DNA of 32,000 bases from Candidatus Electronema aureum. Its GTDB lineage: Bacteria > Desulfobacterota > Desulfobulbia > Desulfobulbales > Desulfobulbaceae. How positions within the stretch are numbered: the first letter of the stretch is position 1; the number at the start of each line of letters is the position of its first letter. Of the stretch, positions 12,063 to 32,000 are shown piece by piece. The position numbers and the translations under genes are program-made. The stretch is from the NCBI GenBank assembly GCA_004284765.1, contig NQJD01000001.1, positions 60,001-92,000 on the forward strand, read 5' to 3'. The notes under the pieces were generated by a model. It had not been told where the DNA came from. It worked only from the letters and a program-made list of their open reading frames with translations, and made no database searches.

Positions 12063-14636
12063 TCACACGCCCAGCAAACGGTAGATCGCCTTCATATCTA
12101 AATTCCAGCGGAGGACTTCGGCCAGCTGGTCTAAGGCGGGTTCAAGGTCGTAGTGCGCACCTTGTCCACTTAATGCTGGCAGACCTTTCGCAGCCCGCCA
12201 GCGGTTGATCAGCCAACGGCGGAAAAGGTCGCTATCAAAGATACCATGCAGATAACTGCCCCAGACTTTGCCGCTGGGGTCAGTGCAGCCACAGGACGCG
12301 CCTCCCTCGAAGTGCAGCAGAGCCGCTGCTGCGGTTTCGCTGCGGCCATGATGAATCTCATAGCCACACACTGGCTGCCCAGAAGGAAGATGTGTTCCTT
12401 GCCTGCGGGTCAGGGTTTTCTCAGTGGCCAGCTCAGTGGTCAGGTCCAGCAGCCCAAGCCCCTTGCGCAGGCTGCCTGGCTCGCCTTCCAAACCGTGCGG
12501 ATCAAGCACCGAATGGCCCAGCATTTGAAAGCCGCCACAGATACCGATGATCTCCCGGCCTTGCTTGGCCGCCCGCAGGATGGCCGCATCTAAGCCGCTC
12601 TCCTTTAACCAAGCTACATCAGCAATCACGTTCTTAGAACCAGGCAGAATCACGCAGTCTGGCTGACCTAACTGATCGGCATGGCGCACGGTTCGCAGCC
12701 AAACATCCGGCTCGGCCAACAGCGGCTCAATATCAGTGAAGTTGGAGATATGCGGCAGGTCGATCAGGGCAATTTCAATATGCTCGGTAGCAGGCTTGGG
12801 CCGATTATACAGTCCGGCTTTGAAGCTGACTGAATCCTCCTGTGGCAGACCAAGCTCATGCAGCCAAGGAATCACCCCGAAAACGGGCTTGCCGGTGCGT
12901 TGTTCGAGGAAATGATGCGCATCGGCAAGCAGGCTGACATCACCCCGAAAACGGTTGACGATGAAACCAGCCAGCAGCTTGCGTTCCCAAGGCACCATTA
13001 CTTCCACATGACCGATAAAGGAGGCATAAACCCCGCCTCGGTCAATGTCACCGACCAACAAGGCAGGGGCTTGGCTGTGCTGGGCCATGCGTAAATTAAC
13101 GATATCATGAGCCTTCAGATTAACCTCACCCGCACTTCCTGCGCCCTCCAGAATGATGCAGTCCTGTTCGGCAGCCAGCTCGTCGTAGGCGGTGCAGACC
13201 GTCTGCCAGAGCTTGTCTTTGTAGCGCACGTATTCCGCCACCCGCATATTGCCCACGGGTTTGCCAAGGACAATCACTTGGCTGCCGGTATCGGAAGAGG
13301 GCTTGAGCAGAACTGGATTCATCCGCACATCCGGGTCGAGAAGGCACGCTTGGGCCTGCACCACTTGGGCACGGCCCATCTCGCCGCCGTCCTTGGTCAC
13401 GCAGGAGTTGAGCGACATGTTCTGGGCCTTGAACGGGGCCACGCGCAGGCCATCTTGCAGCAAGACACGACAGAGGCCAGCCGCTAACACGCTCTTGCCC
13501 ACATCTGAGCCAGTGCCGATCAGCATCAGGGCTGGAGTTCGTTTGCGCTGGGTTGTGCTTGAGACGGTCTTCTCTGGGTCGAGAATCTTTTGCAGGGCAT
13601 GGACAAGGCGGTTATTCTCTTCTTCCGAGCGCACGGCAATGCGGAAATACTGACTATTCAAGCCCTCGTAGTCGCTACAGACCCGAATGGCAATCTTGCT
13701 TTCCCGCAGCAGGCGATCAGCCAGATTCGCTGCGGATATCCGCCCGGACAGATGAATCAGCAGGAAGTTGGCTGCGCCCTCAATCACCCGGAGCCTTGGC
13801 AAGTTTTCTGCCAACTCTCGCAGCAGCTTTTCGCGGCAGTTCTGTACGGTTTCTCGGCTGCGCTGGATGTAGCTTGTCTGCCCTAAAACAAAGGTTCCGG
13901 CAGCCTGCGCCAAGGAGTTTACCGACCACGGCGCAATTTGTGTTCTGATCTTCTGGCAAAATGCTTCCGAAGCAGCGAGGAAGCCGAGACGGAGGCCAGG
14001 CACCGCAAAGAGCTTGGTCAGCGAGCACAGGGTGATGATGTTCTCTCGGCAGCAGGCTATCGACTCGTATCCCTCGATAAAGCCAGCAAAAGCCTCATCA
14101 ATGAGGAAAAGAACTTCTGGTTGCCTATCAGCCAAGGCTAACAGCTTTTGCCGATCATTCAGCCGCCCTGTAGGGTTGTTCGGTTGACCAAGGATGAGTA
14201 AATCACCGGGACGCAGCAGCTCGTAGAGCTGGCGCAAGTGAGGCTGGAAGTCTTGTTCCGCTGAGAGCGGCACCGGCAGCACCTTTACCCCAGCATGGGC
14301 GCAAGCGTTGCGGTAGTCGATGTACGCAGGCACAGGAATCACCGCCCGCTGCGGCTTCGCGGCCCGGACAGCAGCATAGAGCAGCTCAGAAGTACCATTG
14401 CCAACAACGATCTGGCCAGAGCCAATCCGATACTGGTTAGAAATGGCTTTAACTAAGTCTGCTGCTTCTGGGTCAGGATAGTGGATAATGTCAGGCAGCC
14501 GGGCGGCCAAAACCTGCCAAAGCTGCTCTGGTGGGCCAAGCGGGTTGATGTTGGCACTGCAATCAAGAATCTCTTCTGCCTTGCAACCAAGCCGGGCCGC
14601 CAGCTCGTGCAAGTTGCCGCCGTGTGTGCTGCTCAT
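12063..14636 (-). CDS. cobDQ: Fusion of CobD-type L-threonine-O-3-phosphate decarboxylase (class I/II aminotransferase fold) with cobyric acid synthase CobQ/CbiP
   Basis: 857 aa. The N-terminal ~355 aa (HGGNLHELAARLG...ILDCSANINPLGPP, PNNPTGR, SLTKLFAVPGLRLGF) are CobD-like. The rest (LMLIGTGSDVGKSVLAAGLCRVL..APFKAQNMSLNS, then the GATase part IGICGGFQMLG...YEIHHG) is CobQ. The junction is near nt 13560. Confidence 0.88.
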   Translation of the reverse strand: MSSTHGGNLHELAARLGCKAEEILDCSANINPLGPPEQLWQVLAARLPDIIHYPDPEAADLVKAISNQYRIGSGQIVVGNGTSELLYAAVRAAKPQRAVIPVPAYIDYRNACAHAGVKVLPVPLSAEQDFQPHLRQLYELLRPGDLLILGQPNNPTGRLNDRQKLLALADRQPEVLFLIDEAFAGFIEGYESIACCRENIITLCSLTKLFAVPGLRLGFLAASEAFCQKIRTQIAPWSVNSLAQAAGTFVLGQTSYIQRSRETVQNCREKLLRELAENLPRLRVIEGAANFLLIHLSGRISAANLADRLLRESKIAIRVCSDYEGLNSQYFRIAVRSEEENNRLVHALQKILDPEKTVSSTTQRKRTPALMLIGTGSDVGKSVLAAGLCRVLLQDGLRVAPFKAQNMSLNSCVTKDGGEMGRAQVVQAQACLLDPDVRMNPVLLKPSSDTGSQVIVLGKPVGNMRVAEYVRYKDKLWQTVCTAYDELAAEQDCIILEGAGSAGEVNLKAHDIVNLRMAQHSQAPALLVGDIDRGGVYASFIGHVEVMVPWERKLLAGFIVNRFRGDVSLLADAHHFLEQRTGKPVFGVIPWLHELGLPQEDSVSFKAGLYNRPKPATEHIEIALIDLPHISNFTDIEPLLAEPDVWLRTVRHADQLGQPDCVILPGSKNVIADVAWLKESGLDAAILRAAKQGREIIGICGGFQMLGHSVLDPHGLEGEPGSLRKGLGLLDLTTELATEKTLTRRQGTHLPSGQPVCGYEIHHGRSETAAAALLHFEGGASCGCTDPSGKVWGSYLHGIFDSDLFRRWLINRWRAAKGLPALSGQGAHYDLEPALDQLAEVLRWNLDMKAIYRLLGV

Positions 14637-15343
14637 GGTTGCAGCCCCAGCGTTGCGAAGGGTGGCAGAGCCAGTATCTCCATGAACGTAGAAACATGCC
14701 AGCGGGCTTCTAAGGCCGGGTTGCCAAAGGCGATCAAATCCACGCCTGCGGCTGCGCTGTGTGCCTGATCGACCGTGGAATCACCGATAAAGATCGCCTC
14801 ATCGGGTCGCAGCTGGAAATGATCGAGGATAACATGCAGGGCATCGGGCGCAGGCTTGGGTCGAGGCGCATTGGCAGCAGTCATGACGATCTCGAAATGC
14901 TGCCGTAGCTCGAAGATATCTAAGATCATGTCCATCGAGGTGGTGCGGTTGGTCGAGATAGCCCGGTGGCAGCGCGGCGTGATGATTTGCAAAAACTGCT
15001 TCAAGTCAGGGGCCATCTGCATGTGGCGGAGGTAAGGCGTATAATCGAGCGATTGCGAATAACTGCTTACTGCCTCCCTGCTGATCTGGTGGTGCTTGTG
15101 GAAGATATGGCGGATGGAGTCAGCGACATTGTGCATGTGGACATATTCAAGCTCCTCCATGCTCATAGGTGGGCAAGAGAAATGCGCAAGCAGATCATTG
15201 TAATAAACGCGGTTGGCCTCGCGAGAGTCGAAGAGCACTCCGTCACAGTCAAAGACGACAAGTTTCAGCATGGCAGGGGGAGGTGTGGTGGCGGGGAAAT
15301 CTGCTGATGTACTCAAGAGTATAGTGCAGATAAAACTTATCAT
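14633..15343 (-). CDS. HAD-superfamily hydrolase (phosphatase-like)
   Basis: It has HAD motif I VVFDCDGVLFDS, motif II STNR and motif IV-like FIGDSTVD. The stop overlaps the cobDQ start (ATGA at 14633..14636). The true start may be Met25 (ATG 15271..15269, MLKLVVFDCDG) rather than 15343; neither has a convincing SD. Confidence 0.75.
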   Translation of the reverse strand: MISFICTILLSTSADFPATTPPPAMLKLVVFDCDGVLFDSREANRVYYNDLLAHFSCPPMSMEELEYVHMHNVADSIRHIFHKHHQISREAVSSYSQSLDYTPYLRHMQMAPDLKQFLQIITPRCHRAISTNRTTSMDMILDIFELRQHFEIVMTAANAPRPKPAPDALHVILDHFQLRPDEAIFIGDSTVDQAHSAAAGVDLIAFGNPALEARWHVSTFMEILALPPFATLGLQP

Positions 15344-28728: not shown

Positions 28729-29568
28729 TTACTCCGTCTGTTCAGCGATGAGGCGTTTTTTTACTTGATCGTATTCCGCCTCAAGAGGTTCTATATCTGG
28801 ATGTCCAGCCGGAAATTTTGCTTTGAGAATGGTCAGCGCGTTTTGATATGCTGATGCAGCTTCTGTCCAGCGGCCTCGCGTTTGATAGGATGTGGCTAAT
28901 TTGGCAAAATCCTTGGCAAGGTGAGGATGATCTTTACCCAGCGTTTTTTCGTCAATAGCCATATCACGCAGCTGCAAAGATTCTGCTTCCTTAGGCTGAC
29001 CTATCTGCCAATGTAGTCCAGCCAACTTACCCAGTTCGGCTCCCACCTCTGAATGCTCTTTGCCCAAGTTTTTTTCTTTGACCGCCATAGCGCGGGCATA
29101 CAGCGACTCTGCTTCCACATAACGCCGCTGGTTTTGATAGAGTCCGGCTAATTTGTCCATCGTAACGGCCAAATCGGGATGATTTTTAGGCAGTGCTTTT
29201 TCTTGAATACGCAGGACGCGCTCGTACAAGGATTCCGCTTCGGCCTGTTTTCCGTGCAAATGATGCAGTTCGGCCAAGCTGCTTAGGATTGCCGCACGTT
29301 CAGCAGCATATTTTTCCGCTGCTTTGTCATAAATCTCAACAGCTCGCCAGTACAGCGGTTCCGCTTCTGCATACCGTTCTTGCGCAACATAGCAGGCAGC
29401 CAGCTTGCTCAAGGCCGCTGCCAGCTCAGGATGCGCTTTGCCCAAGGTGTTCTCTTGAGTAGAAACCACCTGTTTCAGTTGTGCCACATCATCTCCCGCC
29501 GCTGATGCTCCGGCAGGGACAGCAGTCAGCAAGAAACAGCAGCACAGCAACTTGACTTTTCTTCGCAT
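28729..29568 (-). CDS. Secreted tetratricopeptide-repeat protein (kinesin-light-chain-type 42-aa TPRs)
   Basis: Signal peptide MRRKVKLLCCCFLLTAVPAGASAAG. About six repeats follow the form LGK.HP.VA..L.KLA.LY..Q.RY.EAE.LY.RA..I.EK. SD AGGAGG upstream. Confidence 0.85.
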   Translation of the reverse strand: MRRKVKLLCCCFLLTAVPAGASAAGDDVAQLKQVVSTQENTLGKAHPELAAALSKLAACYVAQERYAEAEPLYWRAVEIYDKAAEKYAAERAAILSSLAELHHLHGKQAEAESLYERVLRIQEKALPKNHPDLAVTMDKLAGLYQNQRRYVEAESLYARAMAVKEKNLGKEHSEVGAELGKLAGLHWQIGQPKEAESLQLRDMAIDEKTLGKDHPHLAKDFAKLATSYQTRGRWTEAASAYQNALTILKAKFPAGHPDIEPLEAEYDQVKKRLIAEQTE

Positions 29569-29664
29569 GTTTTCCTCCTTTTTTTGTCAAACTCCCCTCA
29601 TCCACTGCAATAATATCGTTTTTCTGCCAACCTCTGTACTCTTTTTTGCAAAAAAAACAATTCT

Positions 29665-29703
29665 GTTCATGCTCCGTTCATGGGTTGTTCATCTCACGTT
29701 CAT
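29665..29703 (+). promoter_or_regulatory. Four direct GTTCAT hexamers at an exact 11-bp phasing, upstream of an AT-rich -10-like element
   Basis: GTTCAT occurs at 29665, 29676, 29687 and 29698. TATTAT at 29715..29720 follows 11 bp after the last repeat. The downstream gene starts at 29814. Confidence 0.6.
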
Positions 29704-29813
29704 CTGCGGCTTGTTATTATAAAAGCATAAGAGGAGAAGAACGCGGTCTGAGGAGGCCGTTTTCCGAAGAACAGAATAGAGCGGGACCAACTACAACCCC
29801 CGTAGGGGAGAGA

Positions 29814-30203
29814 ATGATGAAAACGAACACCATGAAGTTAGCAGGCAGAACTCTTGTAACAATCGCAGCAGCAGGTTTATTCTTGCTTGCTGGTTCAGCA
29901 GCCTTTGCACAACAAAACACTGCGTCACCGATACTGAGCGACGCGATTCAGCACTGCGGCTGCGACAAGAAGGAAGGCATTGAGATGTACGTGCAGAATA
30001 TTATCAATGATGCTAAGAATCGCGGTATGAACTGTGAAACAGCAAAAATTCACGCCTTTGCCTGCATCACCTCGTATTGCTCCATCTGTAAAGAGCATCC
30101 CGGTATCATGGAGAGCTGCATAAAGATGGGTGCCGATTATTTTGCCGCCTCACCGGGTTTCTGCCAGTCTTCTGGACAATTAGCAGTCACACCGATGTTC
30201 TAA
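29814..30203 (+). CDS. Small secreted cysteine-rich protein, unknown function
   Basis: I placed the start at ATGATG 29814, with SD GGGGAG 4 nt upstream; the track's TTG start at 29646 is unlikely. The signal peptide is MMKTNTMKLAGRTLVTIAAAGLFLLAGSAAFA-QQ. The mature ~95 aa contain 8 Cys (HCGC, NCE, FAC, YCSIC, SC, FC). Confidence 0.65.
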   Translation: MMKTNTMKLAGRTLVTIAAAGLFLLAGSAAFAQQNTASPILSDAIQHCGCDKKEGIEMYVQNIINDAKNRGMNCETAKIHAFACITSYCSICKEHPGIMESCIKMGADYFAASPGFCQSSGQLAVTPMF

Positions 30204-30309
30204 GATAGGCGTAAACTGAAGGGCGGTCTTATCCTTGGTTCCGACAGACCGCCCGGAATATATCTCCGCCCGTTTTTTTGCGGTACGGAGCAAAGACAAG
30301 GAGCCGTAT

Positions 30310-30459
30310 ATGGAGATGCTCCACGAATGCTGTTCTGACTGGCTCTTCATTGGTACAGCATTGTTCGGCGTGTTTCTGATCGTAGCTATTGGTTTACTGG
30401 CGGCAGGAAAAAAGGAAGATGACACCAAGAAAAAGCAGAAGTTGACTCAAGACTTTTAA
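30310..30459 (+). CDS. Possible 49-aa single-pass membrane peptide
   Basis: MEMLHECCSDWLFIGTALFGVFLIVAIGLLAAGKKEDDTKKKQKLTQDF, with a strong SD AAGGAG 7 nt upstream of ATG 30310. It has one TM helix and a Lys-rich tail. Confidence 0.45.
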   Translation: MEMLHECCSDWLFIGTALFGVFLIVAIGLLAAGKKEDDTKKKQKLTQDF

Positions 30460-30480
30460 GAGAGCGATACCGTCTTCAAG

Positions 30481-30632
30481 AGTGTCTTTGCCTCGACTCC
30501 TCCTCCACGCAATGGTGCGTGGAACAGAGGCAAAGGCACTTGTTTCAACCCATTTACGAAAACACGCCTCTCAGCGTCTCTGTTCCGACTCCTCCTCCAC
30601 GCAATGGTGCGTGGAACAGGGGCAGAGACGCT
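30481..30632 (+). repeat. Two 60-nt hairpin units (14-nt arm, identical 32-nt core, 14-nt arm) with compensatory arm substitutions: candidate structured RNA / 3'UTR element
   Basis: Unit 1 is 30481..30540 and unit 2 is 30573..30632. The core GACTCCTCCTCCACGCAATGGTGCGTGGAACA is identical in both and contains the inner hairpin TCCACGCA-ATGG-TGCGTGGA. The outer arms differ in sequence but pair in both units. The only non-Watson-Crick pairs are G-U, and only when the plus strand is read as RNA. Confidence 0.7.
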
Positions 30633-30641
30633 GTCTTTTTT
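30573..30641 (+). terminator. Intrinsic terminator formed by hairpin unit 2 plus a U-tract
   Basis: A 14-bp outer stem is followed directly by GTCTTTTTT (30633..30641). It lies between convergent genes. Confidence 0.6.
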
Positions 30642-30649
30642 AGATGAAA

Positions 30650-32000
30650 TCAGCTGTAAAACGCCGCCCGCAGCAACTGCTGGGTGTAGTCGTGCTTGGG
30701 TTGGGTGAAAATCCGATCTGCCGGGCCTTGCTCGACGATTCTCCCTTGGCGCATGACTGCCAATTCATCCGCTAAAGACCGCAGCACTCGTAGGTCGTGG
30801 GTGATGAAGACATACGTCAGGCCGTGCCTCCGCTGTAAACTCCGCAATAACGTAATAATCTGTGCTTGAATAGTCACGTCCAAGGCCGAGGTGGGTTCAT
30901 CAAGGATCAGCAGCTCTGGCTTGAGGATTAAGGCGCGAGCAATGGCGATGCGCTGTCGCTGACCACCTGAGAACTCATGCGGAAAGCGGCCTGCCATCTC
31001 CGGGGTTAGCTCCACTTCTAAGAGTGCCTGCTCAACCAGCACCTGCCGTTCCTTTCGACTAAGACTTGGCTCATGCACTTGCAAGCCTTCACCGATGATC
31101 TGCTCTACCGTGAGGCGTGGCGAGAGCGAAGAAAAGGGGTCTTGAAAGACGATCTGCATGTGGCGGCGCAGAGGTCGCAACTGGCGGCTACTGAGCTGAG
31201 AAAGCAGTATTTCTCGGTCATCGCGACTATAGCGAATCGTCCCTTGAAAGGTAGTCAAGCCGAGCAAGCAAAGGGCAAGTGTACTCTTGCCAGAACCAGA
31301 CTCACCGATGATACCCAGCGTAGTGCCTTGGTGGATAGTGAGGTTGATATCATCCACCGCTTTCAGCAGTGTACTGTTCCGCTTAAGCACCCCCTGCCAC
31401 GACTTCTTCACCGTAAAGACACAGTTCAACCTCTCTATGCTGATCAGTGCCTTACCACCTACCGCTGGTGTCTTGCTGTCCTGTGGCACTGACTCCAGCA
31501 GCTTATGGGTGTAGTCCTGCGTGGGGGCACTGAAAATCTCCTCTGCTGGGCCTTGCTCAACAATCCTTCCCCTGTGCATGATCGACACCGTATCTGCTGC
31601 CTTCCGCACCAAAGGTAGGTCGTGAGTGATGAGCAGCACGGCCATCTTGAATTCCTGCTGCACATCCTGAATCAACTCCAATATCTGCGCCTGGAGAGTT
31701 ACATCCAAGGCAGTCGTCGGCTCGTCGGCAATTAACAGATGAGGACGACAGGCTAAGGCCATCGCAATCATCACCCGCTGGCGTTGGCCACCGGAAAGCT
31801 GGTGCGGATACGCGTTGATTCTGCTCTCCGGCTCCTGAATACCGGTGCGTGCCAACAGACTGATAGCCTCCTGCCTTGCTTCTTCCTTAGACATCTGCCG
31901 ATGAAGCACCAGCGGCTCTACCAGCTGACTACCGATAGTCAGCACTGGATTGAGCGAGGTCATCGGCTCCTGAAAGATCATGGCTATCTCATTGCCGCGT
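30650..32000 (-). CDS. Dual-domain ABC transporter ATP-binding protein (oligopeptide/dipeptide/nickel type, YejF/GsiA-like); the 5' end is beyond the right window edge
   Basis: The frame stays open upstream of the track's Met (31982..32000 translates [18 protein letters not shown], the usual internal motif). Domain 1 has [15 protein letters not shown] and [12 protein letters not shown]. Domain 2 has the Walker [25 protein letters not shown] and [12 protein letters not shown]. Confidence 0.9.

Follow-up and report, generated by a model that had tools for sequence, protein, structure and literature searches.

In the alpha-r14 ('cuckoo') family of small RNAs (sRNAs) of Alphaproteobacteria, three hairpins with differing stems each present an identical, unpaired anti-Shine-Dalgarno (anti-SD) motif, CCUCCUCCC, and in the family member NfeR1 the three motifs act redundantly on ribosome-binding sites, independently of Hfq (PMC10746234). 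The LhrC1-5 sRNAs of Listeria monocytogenes depend on the two-component system LisRK and carry three redundant CU-rich sites, one of which lies in the terminator (PMC4132741). CpxQ originates from the 3' untranslated region (3'UTR) of cpxP, a Cpx-driven mRNA whose product is a small periplasmic protein, and the 3' end of this mRNA including the terminator constitutes the regulatory RNA (PMC4817254). Here we analysed a stretch of 32,000 nucleotides (nt) from Candidatus Electronema aureum (contig NQJD01000001.1, positions 60,001 to 92,000 of the forward strand; hereafter the window), in which two tandem composite hairpins at 30481-30632 each hold the CU-rich motif ACUCCUCCUC in a predicted internal loop. 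As far as we searched, these hairpins form a previously uncatalogued structured RNA module that is restricted to one genus of freshwater cable bacteria, apparently Candidatus Electronema. In our best reading, which we consider probable, the module is an sRNA controlled by a response regulator and equipped with one or two redundant anti-SD seeds.

Judged by analogy, the module most likely works like NfeR1/alpha-r14, LhrC and CpxQ while being a member of none of these families. With alpha-r14 and NfeR1 it shares the principle of repeated modules that carry an identical, ultraconserved CU-rich motif within differing stems; the motif reads CCUCCUCCC there and ACUCCUCCUC(C) here, with CCUCCUCC in common. 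It differs from them in the number of modules (one or two here, three there), in the position of the seed, which here occupies an asymmetric internal loop that has a hairpin nested in it, unlike the arrangement described for alpha-r14, and in the promoter, a phased response-regulator box here as opposed to LsrB/NtrC there; moreover, the module can here be a 3'UTR. The Rfam alpha-r14 models did not match this locus even at E <= 10, and the host belongs to a single genus of Desulfobulbaceae and not to the Alphaproteobacteria. The likeness to alpha-r14/NfeR1 is convergent, not homologous. LhrC resembles the module as we read it in its dependence on an envelope-stress two-component system, its tandem or multiple copies and its redundant CU-rich sites that bind Shine-Dalgarno (SD) regions (PMC4132741), whereas the LhrC motif is UCCC, located in loops and a linker, the scaffold and phylum are unrelated, and LhrC genes always stand alone. 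The arrangement of CpxQ matches that of the window and of six other loci. However, CpxQ is released by RNase E and uses Hfq, for which no gene was found in the genome studied here, and its seed is of a different type; in six loci here, in addition, the same RNA has a promoter to itself, and no such flexibility has been described for CpxQ. The module is most likely a new family of a well-known kind of regulator.

Anatomy and folding of the hairpin units

A sequence-only reading of the window had proposed two tandem 60-nt hairpin units with an identical core, and both were recovered where it had placed them, with a start-to-start distance of 92 nt and an overall identity of 85%. The features of the module are:

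30481-30540, plus strand: unit 1, with outer stem 30481-30494/30527-30540, unpaired GACUCCUCC at 30495-30503, inner hairpin at 30504-30523 and unpaired ACA at 30524-30526
30573-30632, plus strand: unit 2, with the same anatomy as unit 1 and a different, covarying outer stem
30496-30505, plus strand: seed 1, candidate anti-SD motif ACUCCUCCUC, invariant in 20 of 20 distinct units
30588-30597, plus strand: seed 2, candidate anti-SD motif ACUCCUCCUC
30633-30641, plus strand: predicted intrinsic termination point, a G followed by the UCUUUUUU tract at the base of the unit 2 stem

The core common to both units, GACTCCTCCTCCACGCAATGGTGCGTGGAACAG, spans 30495-30527 and 30587-30619 and is identical base for base as proposed, although its length is 33 nt (34 nt counting the preceding C) and not 32 nt; the number of chance matches to this core expected within the window is zero. 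Each unit is built from a 14-base-pair (bp) outer stem, the unpaired GACUCCUCC, an 8-bp inner hairpin UCCACGCA/UGCGUGGA with the loop AUGG, and the unpaired ACA. This structure, including the inner hairpin and the flanking unpaired stretch of the first description, is the minimum-free-energy fold of unit 1 (-34.3 kcal/mol, z = -5.9) as well as of unit 2 (-35.7 kcal/mol, z = -6.1), and 0 of 200 shuffles folded as well in either case. For the 190-nt region the folding z was -6.1.

By hand count the outer stems of units 1 and 2 differ at six pairs. Three of these are double changes from U-A to C-G (positions 3, 8 and 13), one more than had been counted from the sequence alone, two are changes from C-G to U-G (positions 11 and 12), as had been noted, and one is a change from U-G to U-A (position 5). 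The 14-bp stem is kept in both units, and that of unit 2 reaches 15 bp with the pair C30572-G30633. All non-Watson-Crick pairs of both outer stems are G-U when read on the plus strand, a further point on which the initial reading held.

Unit 1 starts 21 nt past the stop codon (30459) of a gene for a peptide of 49 amino acids (aa) and has no strong U-tract behind it. Unit 2, in agreement with the U-tract claimed at first sight, is followed by UCUUUUUU at 30634-30641, so that its 15-bp stem and the U-tract together have the form of an intrinsic terminator; a simple terminator scanner did not call it, the 'loop' being longer than 8 nt. In 11 of 13 loci the last unit is followed by a run of at least four T residues. 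The 53-aa open reading frame at 30482-30643 was considered as a coding sequence and rejected on account of single-nucleotide indels between homologous units.

Distribution of the module

Within the own genome (2.76 Mb, 73 contigs, 92% complete) the unit occurs in two copies only, both at this locus. A scan of 29500-31500 with all 4227 models of Rfam 15 (cmscan, E <= 10) returned only two chance matches, mir-4716 and sobemo_FSE. Searching 59 relatives for exact or near-exact cores with up to 3 mismatches yielded no match and misleadingly suggested a singleton. Diverged homologues within the genus were detected by blastn and then by a covariance model, R1, which was built from 13 aligned units out of 8 genomes. 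A match was accepted as a true copy if it contained the CU-rich loop plus the inner hairpin.

Applied to 118 genomes of the family, R1 detected true copies only in the genus of the window, namely in the own genome and in seven of the eight other species, with scores of 55-97 bits and one locus of one or two units per genome. In the window, unit 1 was matched at 30477-30549 (77.6 bits) and unit 2 at 30569-30641 (87 bits). With R1, the 109 other genomes of the family and 150 additional genomes from the order yielded no true copies. G001, the only genome of the genus in which the RNA is missing, is also without the cysteine-rich protein encoded at the locus, which may reflect either loss or an assembly gap. 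Restriction of the core to this single site had been named at the outset as evidence that would speak against a functional RNA: the exact core is indeed found only here, but diverged homologues extend across the genus.

R1 matches outside the genus (G031, G083, G072, G141, G086 and G067) were rejected as members. The five that were inspected, among which the G067 sequence is not included, are plain terminators without the CU-rich loop and inner hairpin, and these terminators have a similar outer stem (GCGUCUCUGCC.../...GGCAGAGACGC plus a U-run). Among the 80 matches listed from a degenerate pattern scan covering 185,579 species genomes, 3 were real loci and most had arisen by chance in high-GC Actinomycetes, the named bearers in this species collection being Desulfobulbaceae UBA5173, Ca. 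Electronema sp. TJ and Desulfobulbaceae S01.Bin068. In a metagenome scan, five full contigs and one partial contig carried the module.

In all relatives the terminal unit is the orthologue of unit 2 (outer stem CAGCGUCUCUG.../...CAGAGACGCUG), and the first unit is more variable across species than the terminal one. The two units of a locus are more alike in their core (1.00, 0.94 and 0.94) than in their outer stems (0.63-0.77) in the window, G005 and G007, respectively, while in G002 and G006 the core is not more alike than the outer stems.

Covariation, strand and the invariant seed

Base-pair covariation was evaluated in two alignments. Of 24 pairs, 15 are changed at both partners in a MAFFT alignment (13 units) and 14 in a model-based alignment (21 units, 20 of them distinct); the model-based alignment is biased towards the structure, and the independent MAFFT alignment shows the same picture. 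A pair is formed in 94.4% of the cells at the 24 base pairs, compared to 36-50% when the partners are slid by 1-3 columns, and the observed covariation score was reached by 0 of 500 shuffles. The non-Watson-Crick cells comprise 46 G-U on the plus strand versus 8 A-C, which correspond to G-U on the minus strand. Similarly, R1 scored only 20-27 bits on the minus strand versus 55-97 bits on the plus strand. Because the G-U asymmetry, the U-tracts and the upstream promoter described below are all on the plus strand, this is taken as the functional strand. The initial argument that covariation around a conserved core reflects selection on RNA structure, drawn from two units, is strengthened by these 20 distinct homologous units, and we consider it very probable from the aligned sequences that a plus-strand RNA structure is under selection.

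While both stems vary, ACUCCUCCUC is the sole invariant single-stranded block in the 20 distinct units. It includes CCUCC, the core of the organism's 16S rRNA 3' end GGAUCACCUCCUUU (contig C28). The predicted probability of ACUCCUCCUC being unpaired is 0.75-0.96 in four modelled transcripts, compared to transcript means of 0.34-0.42; for the transcript of the window the values are 0.93 for seed 1 and 0.75 for seed 2, against a mean of 0.38. ACUCCUCCUC hence has the hallmark of the anti-SD class of sRNAs, i.e. a conserved and accessible single-stranded seed complementary to SD sequences, and the exposed CUCCUCC first pointed out in the window proves to belong to the only single-stranded part that is conserved throughout.

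Promoter box and predicted regulator

A direct repeat upstream of the module first became apparent in the relatives. The pattern TTCATCT-N4-TTCATCT has 2-10 matches per genus genome, compared to 0-1 for the reversed control. A GTTCAT-N5-GTTCAT box is located upstream and on the same strand in 13 of the 13 loci that include upstream sequence, and in all 13 a TAnnnT hexamer follows 11 nt after the proximal half-site (variants TATTAT, TATCCT, TATTGT, TATAGT, TATGCT, TAAGAT, TACTAT and TATTCT). In the window these elements are:

29665-29703, plus strand: four GTTCAT half-sites at 29665, 29676, 29687 and 29698 in exact 11-bp phasing, a predicted OmpR/PhoB-type response-regulator box
29715-29720, plus strand: -10-like hexamer TATTAT, exactly 11 nt past the proximal half-site, with a predicted transcription start near 29727

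In six loci (G002, G004, G005 and three metagenome contigs) the box directly precedes the hairpins, which are its only cargo; the predicted start lies 31-52 nt before the first unit and the predicted RNA measures ~120-210 nt. In the seven other loci, including the window, a gene for a cysteine-rich secreted protein and/or a gene for a 38-51-aa membrane peptide lies between box and hairpins, with predicted transcripts of 0.5-0.9 kb. The sequence-only reading had offered a 3'UTR of the peptide gene or an independent sRNA as alternatives; both predicted forms exist, the former as the mRNA 3' end in seven loci and the latter as a stand-alone RNA in six. No sigma-70-like promoter was called between 30203 and 30481 in the window. 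In our assessment the RNA is quite likely to be expressed from the box promoter.

Elsewhere in the own genome, the strict box precedes real genes at only two sites, C41:11229 and C41:11730, both upstream of genes for small secreted His/Tyr-rich proteins; two further matches with one mismatch (C3 and C55) have no convincing gene downstream. A response regulator and a histidine kinase are encoded 3 kb downstream of the two C41 boxes on the same strand (C41:14487-16573, with the regulator at 14487-15161). Their best NCBIfam matches are the heavy-metal subfamilies TIGR01387 (252 bits) and TIGR01386 (251 bits), both just below the curated cut-offs. This linkage of box cluster and regulator is repeated in G002, G003 and G007. 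As judged from the gene neighbourhood, the GTTCAT box is most plausibly bound by this heavy-metal-type regulator encoded beside the other box-driven genes.

The TorR boxes of torCAD in E. coli and Salmonella are likewise four direct decamers with a GTTCAT core (consensus CTGTTCATAT, box 3 CCGTTCATCC) and are bound by an OmpR/PhoB-family response regulator (PMC9239176). The half-sites of the window read CTGTTCATGC, CCGTTCATGG, TTGTTCATCT and ACGTTCATCT. This likeness is one of resemblance only and limited to the promoter; the regulator predicted here scores best as a heavy-metal (CusR/CopR/CzcR) type.

Proposed mode of action and alternative explanations

According to the reading that we favour, an OmpR/PhoB-class response regulator would bind the phased GTTCAT repeats and activate the promoter, giving rise to a plus-strand transcript that always ends in one or two composite hairpins, the last of which would double as intrinsic terminator. 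In the own genome, the RNA would be the 3' end of a ~0.9-kb mRNA for the cysteine-rich secreted protein and the 49-aa membrane peptide, and might act as a 3'UTR or after excision from the mRNA. In other species, the same promoter located 30-50 nt before the hairpins would produce a free RNA of ~120-210 nt. In either form, the module would expose the invariant ACUCCUCCUC in an asymmetric internal loop flanked by two covarying stems, where it could pair with GGAGG-type ribosome-binding sites of target mRNAs and block translation initiation, the two seeds being redundant. For this last step, anti-SD base pairing, we lean only narrowly in favour. The predicted combination of a signal-dependent promoter, identical and accessible seeds, freely varying stems and a terminal module that doubles as terminator is that of base-pairing sRNAs which mask ribosome-binding sites.

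Several observations weigh against this reading. The hairpin whose internal loop contains the seed is very stable (-34 to -36 kcal/mol), and the seed is not in a terminal loop or a free stretch, a placement that may restrict pairing. An RNAduplex scan of translation-initiation regions returned only generic strong SD sites without a functional theme (e.g. C2:101987, C4:30598, C6:92141, C24:33402 and C30:4124, none of which we claim as a target), and the seed matches the box regulon's own genes poorly. CUCCUCC would pair with most strong ribosome-binding sites, which leaves target specificity unexplained. The regulator is assigned from gene neighbourhood only, and the aligned sequences are those of close relatives, so that the covariation counts overstate the number of independent events. 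Finally, no gene for Hfq (PF17209) was found in the 92%-complete own genome with a model that matches control genomes; we grade this point as neutral, NfeR1 being Hfq-independent. A gene for CsrA (PF02599) was likewise not found in this genome, while control genomes were matched.

Feedback of the RNA on the box regulon or its two-component system was considered and rejected as a strong hypothesis, given that the initiation regions concerned reach -0.8 to -12 kcal/mol versus -18.4 kcal/mol for the 1st percentile of the genome. The 5' leaders of the mRNA for the cysteine-rich protein contain, in the window (29727-29813) and in G007 (L039 1540-1620), two GAGGAG motifs each, far upstream of the actual ribosome-binding site; it is in these two species that this mRNA ends in two units. 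The CUCCUC seed is complementary to the leader motifs, with -13.2 kcal/mol for the best duplex, and a 5'-3' interaction or auto-targeting through them is possible. A second RNA locus with multiple CCUCC motifs was not found in the own genome apart from a CRISPR (clustered regularly interspaced short palindromic repeats) array. This array is very large, with 394 exact copies of the 32-nt repeat GTCGCCTCCTTCACGGGGGCGTGGATTGAAAC at ~400-28735 of contig C31, and occupies nearly the whole 28.9-kb contig.

We weighed four other explanations. The composite hairpins could be a purely cis-acting 3'-end structure, i.e. intrinsic terminators or 3'-exonuclease barriers that stabilise box-driven transcripts and may also terminate the convergent gene, without any role in trans. 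Such a role would fit the long stem and U-tract of unit 2, the location of the element between convergent genes in most loci, and the finding that the inspected R1 matches outside the genus are ordinary terminators, which suggests that the outer stem derives from a terminator. However, a terminator needs neither an invariant 10-nt single-stranded motif nor a separately covarying inner hairpin, and unit 1 is usually without a U-tract yet retains the full module. In six loci, moreover, the promoter drives the hairpins alone, leaving no mRNA to stabilise, and the minus-strand reading has no adjacent U-run and contains A-C mismatches. Taken together, we regard a function exclusively in cis as unlikely.

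An equally improbable explanation is that the ACUCCUCCUC loop and the inner hairpin are recognised by a pyrimidine-binding protein which is titrated or recruited by the RNA; conceivable binders would include ribosomal protein S1, proteins with a KH or cold-shock domain, or some unknown factor. The locus has no candidate protein linked to it, the motif is an exact match to the anti-SD core, and the best-studied RNAs with such repeated CU-rich motifs act by base pairing; CsrA, the classical partner of sponge RNAs, binds GGA rather than CU and was not found in the genome. What speaks for a protein is the fixed geometry, to which the invariance of the motif extends (a 9-10-nt 5' bulge, the inner hairpin and a 2-3-nt 3' bulge) and typical of protein sites, together with the resemblance of the repeated modules to sponge RNAs and the failure of the target scans to reveal a specific mRNA.

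A functional minus strand, be it as a GGAGGAG-rich sponge of the CsrA/Rsm type, as an SD mimic or as the 3'UTR of the convergent gene for an ATP-binding cassette (ABC) ATPase, is very improbable. The minus strand does fold well (-80.2 kcal/mol, z -5.3) with exposed GGA motifs, and a distance of 9 nt separates the end of the ABC ATPase gene from the U-tract, but G-U pairs favour the plus strand by 46 to 8, the model scores are 55-97 bits on the plus strand against 20-27 on the minus strand, the U-tracts and the conserved promoter are on the plus strand, and the convergent gene differs among species. Sponges of the CsrB/RsmZ type would also be expected to present multiple GGA motifs in hairpin loops to CsrA; here such motifs occur only on the disfavoured minus strand and no CsrA was found. 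The tandem repetition of a palindromic unit in an intergenic region might suggest a mobile or repetitive DNA element (a miniature inverted-repeat transposable element (MITE), a repetitive extragenic palindromic (REP) sequence or an attC-like site) or a chance duplication, but this is effectively refuted by the presence of only two copies in 2.76 Mb, both here, the single syntenic, promoter-linked locus per relative, the lack of target-site duplications and of a transposase or integrase nearby, and the G-U asymmetry, which shows selection at the RNA level. Many genomic copies with target duplications, named at the outset as a sign of a MITE, are thus not present.

To our knowledge, cable bacteria have neither been obtained in pure culture nor been genetically manipulated so far. 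A literature search found no paper on regulatory RNAs of cable bacteria, and a 2026 paper on their genome repertoire makes no mention of sRNAs or two-component systems. The locus offers a compact and testable circuit, comprising a sensor kinase and regulator, a sharp DNA box, small cysteine-rich secreted proteins and an RNA with a clear seed, whose components all lend themselves to tests in E. coli or in vitro. The switch of one RNA module between stand-alone sRNA and 3'UTR in sister species bears on the evolution of 3'UTR-derived sRNAs. As CU-rich anti-SD sRNAs under two-component control are a well-known kind of regulator, a specialist may find the module useful rather than startling.

In a bolder and quite doubtful version, the RNA would form the post-transcriptional branch of a circuit that is specific to the genus and senses the envelope or metals, and would act as a mimic of the 16S 3' end that competes broadly for strong SD sites. 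If true, no regulatory RNA would have been described in cable bacteria before it, and the circuit (heavy-metal-type two-component system, phased GTTCAT box, cysteine-rich and His/Tyr-rich secreted proteins, anti-SD RNA) would have arisen along with a new cysteine-rich family of periplasmic proteins. Firing of the sensor would then re-weight translation across the filament rather than affect a few targets, by means of a module that is interchangeable as free sRNA or 3'UTR in sister species.

Cargo genes and neighbourhood

Three genes flank the hairpins or separate them from the box in the window:

29814-30203, plus strand: first cargo gene, encoding a 129-aa secreted protein with eight cysteines (HCGCD...YCSIC)
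30310-30459, plus strand: second cargo gene, encoding a single-pass membrane peptide of 49 aa (MEMLHECCSDWLFIG...); a good ribosome-binding site, AAGGAG, precedes it by 6 nt
30650-31999, minus strand: convergent gene for an Opp/Dpp (YejF-like) ABC ATPase with two fused nucleotide-binding domains, its stop at 30650 lying 9 nt from the U-tract

The 129-aa cysteine-rich protein does not belong to any Pfam or NCBIfam family and has only 15 homologues among 5.8 billion proteins. Within the bacterial family, its distribution coincides with that of the RNA (the same 8 genomes of the genus, 0 of the 109 others), with 1-4 paralogues per genome; the paralogue in the own genome is located at C17:36839-37147 on the minus strand. 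Homologous peptides of 38-51 aa, with a CCSDWLF or CWNDWSF motif, occur in the same position as the 49-aa peptide in G005, G006, G008 and the metagenome contig L201. In the 49-aa peptide itself the CCSDWLF motif is N-terminal and conserved. Because of these homologues in four other loci, the 49-aa open reading frame is likely to be a real small protein gene.

The gene downstream of and convergent to the module encodes an ABC ATPase in four of 8 genomes, a thioredoxin-reductase-like protein in two and other proteins in two. As it is replaced by other genes in half of the genomes, the convergent gene is not functionally tied to the RNA. A layout typical of 3'UTR-derived sRNAs, in which the RNA lies between a stop codon and the shared terminator, was found in the window and overall in 7 of 13 loci. 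Between the genes for the cysteine-rich protein and the peptide, at 30219-30254, the window further contains a 9-bp GC-rich hairpin (GGGCGGTCT...AGACCGCCC) with no adjacent plus-strand U-tract, possibly a site of processing or of partial termination inside the operon.

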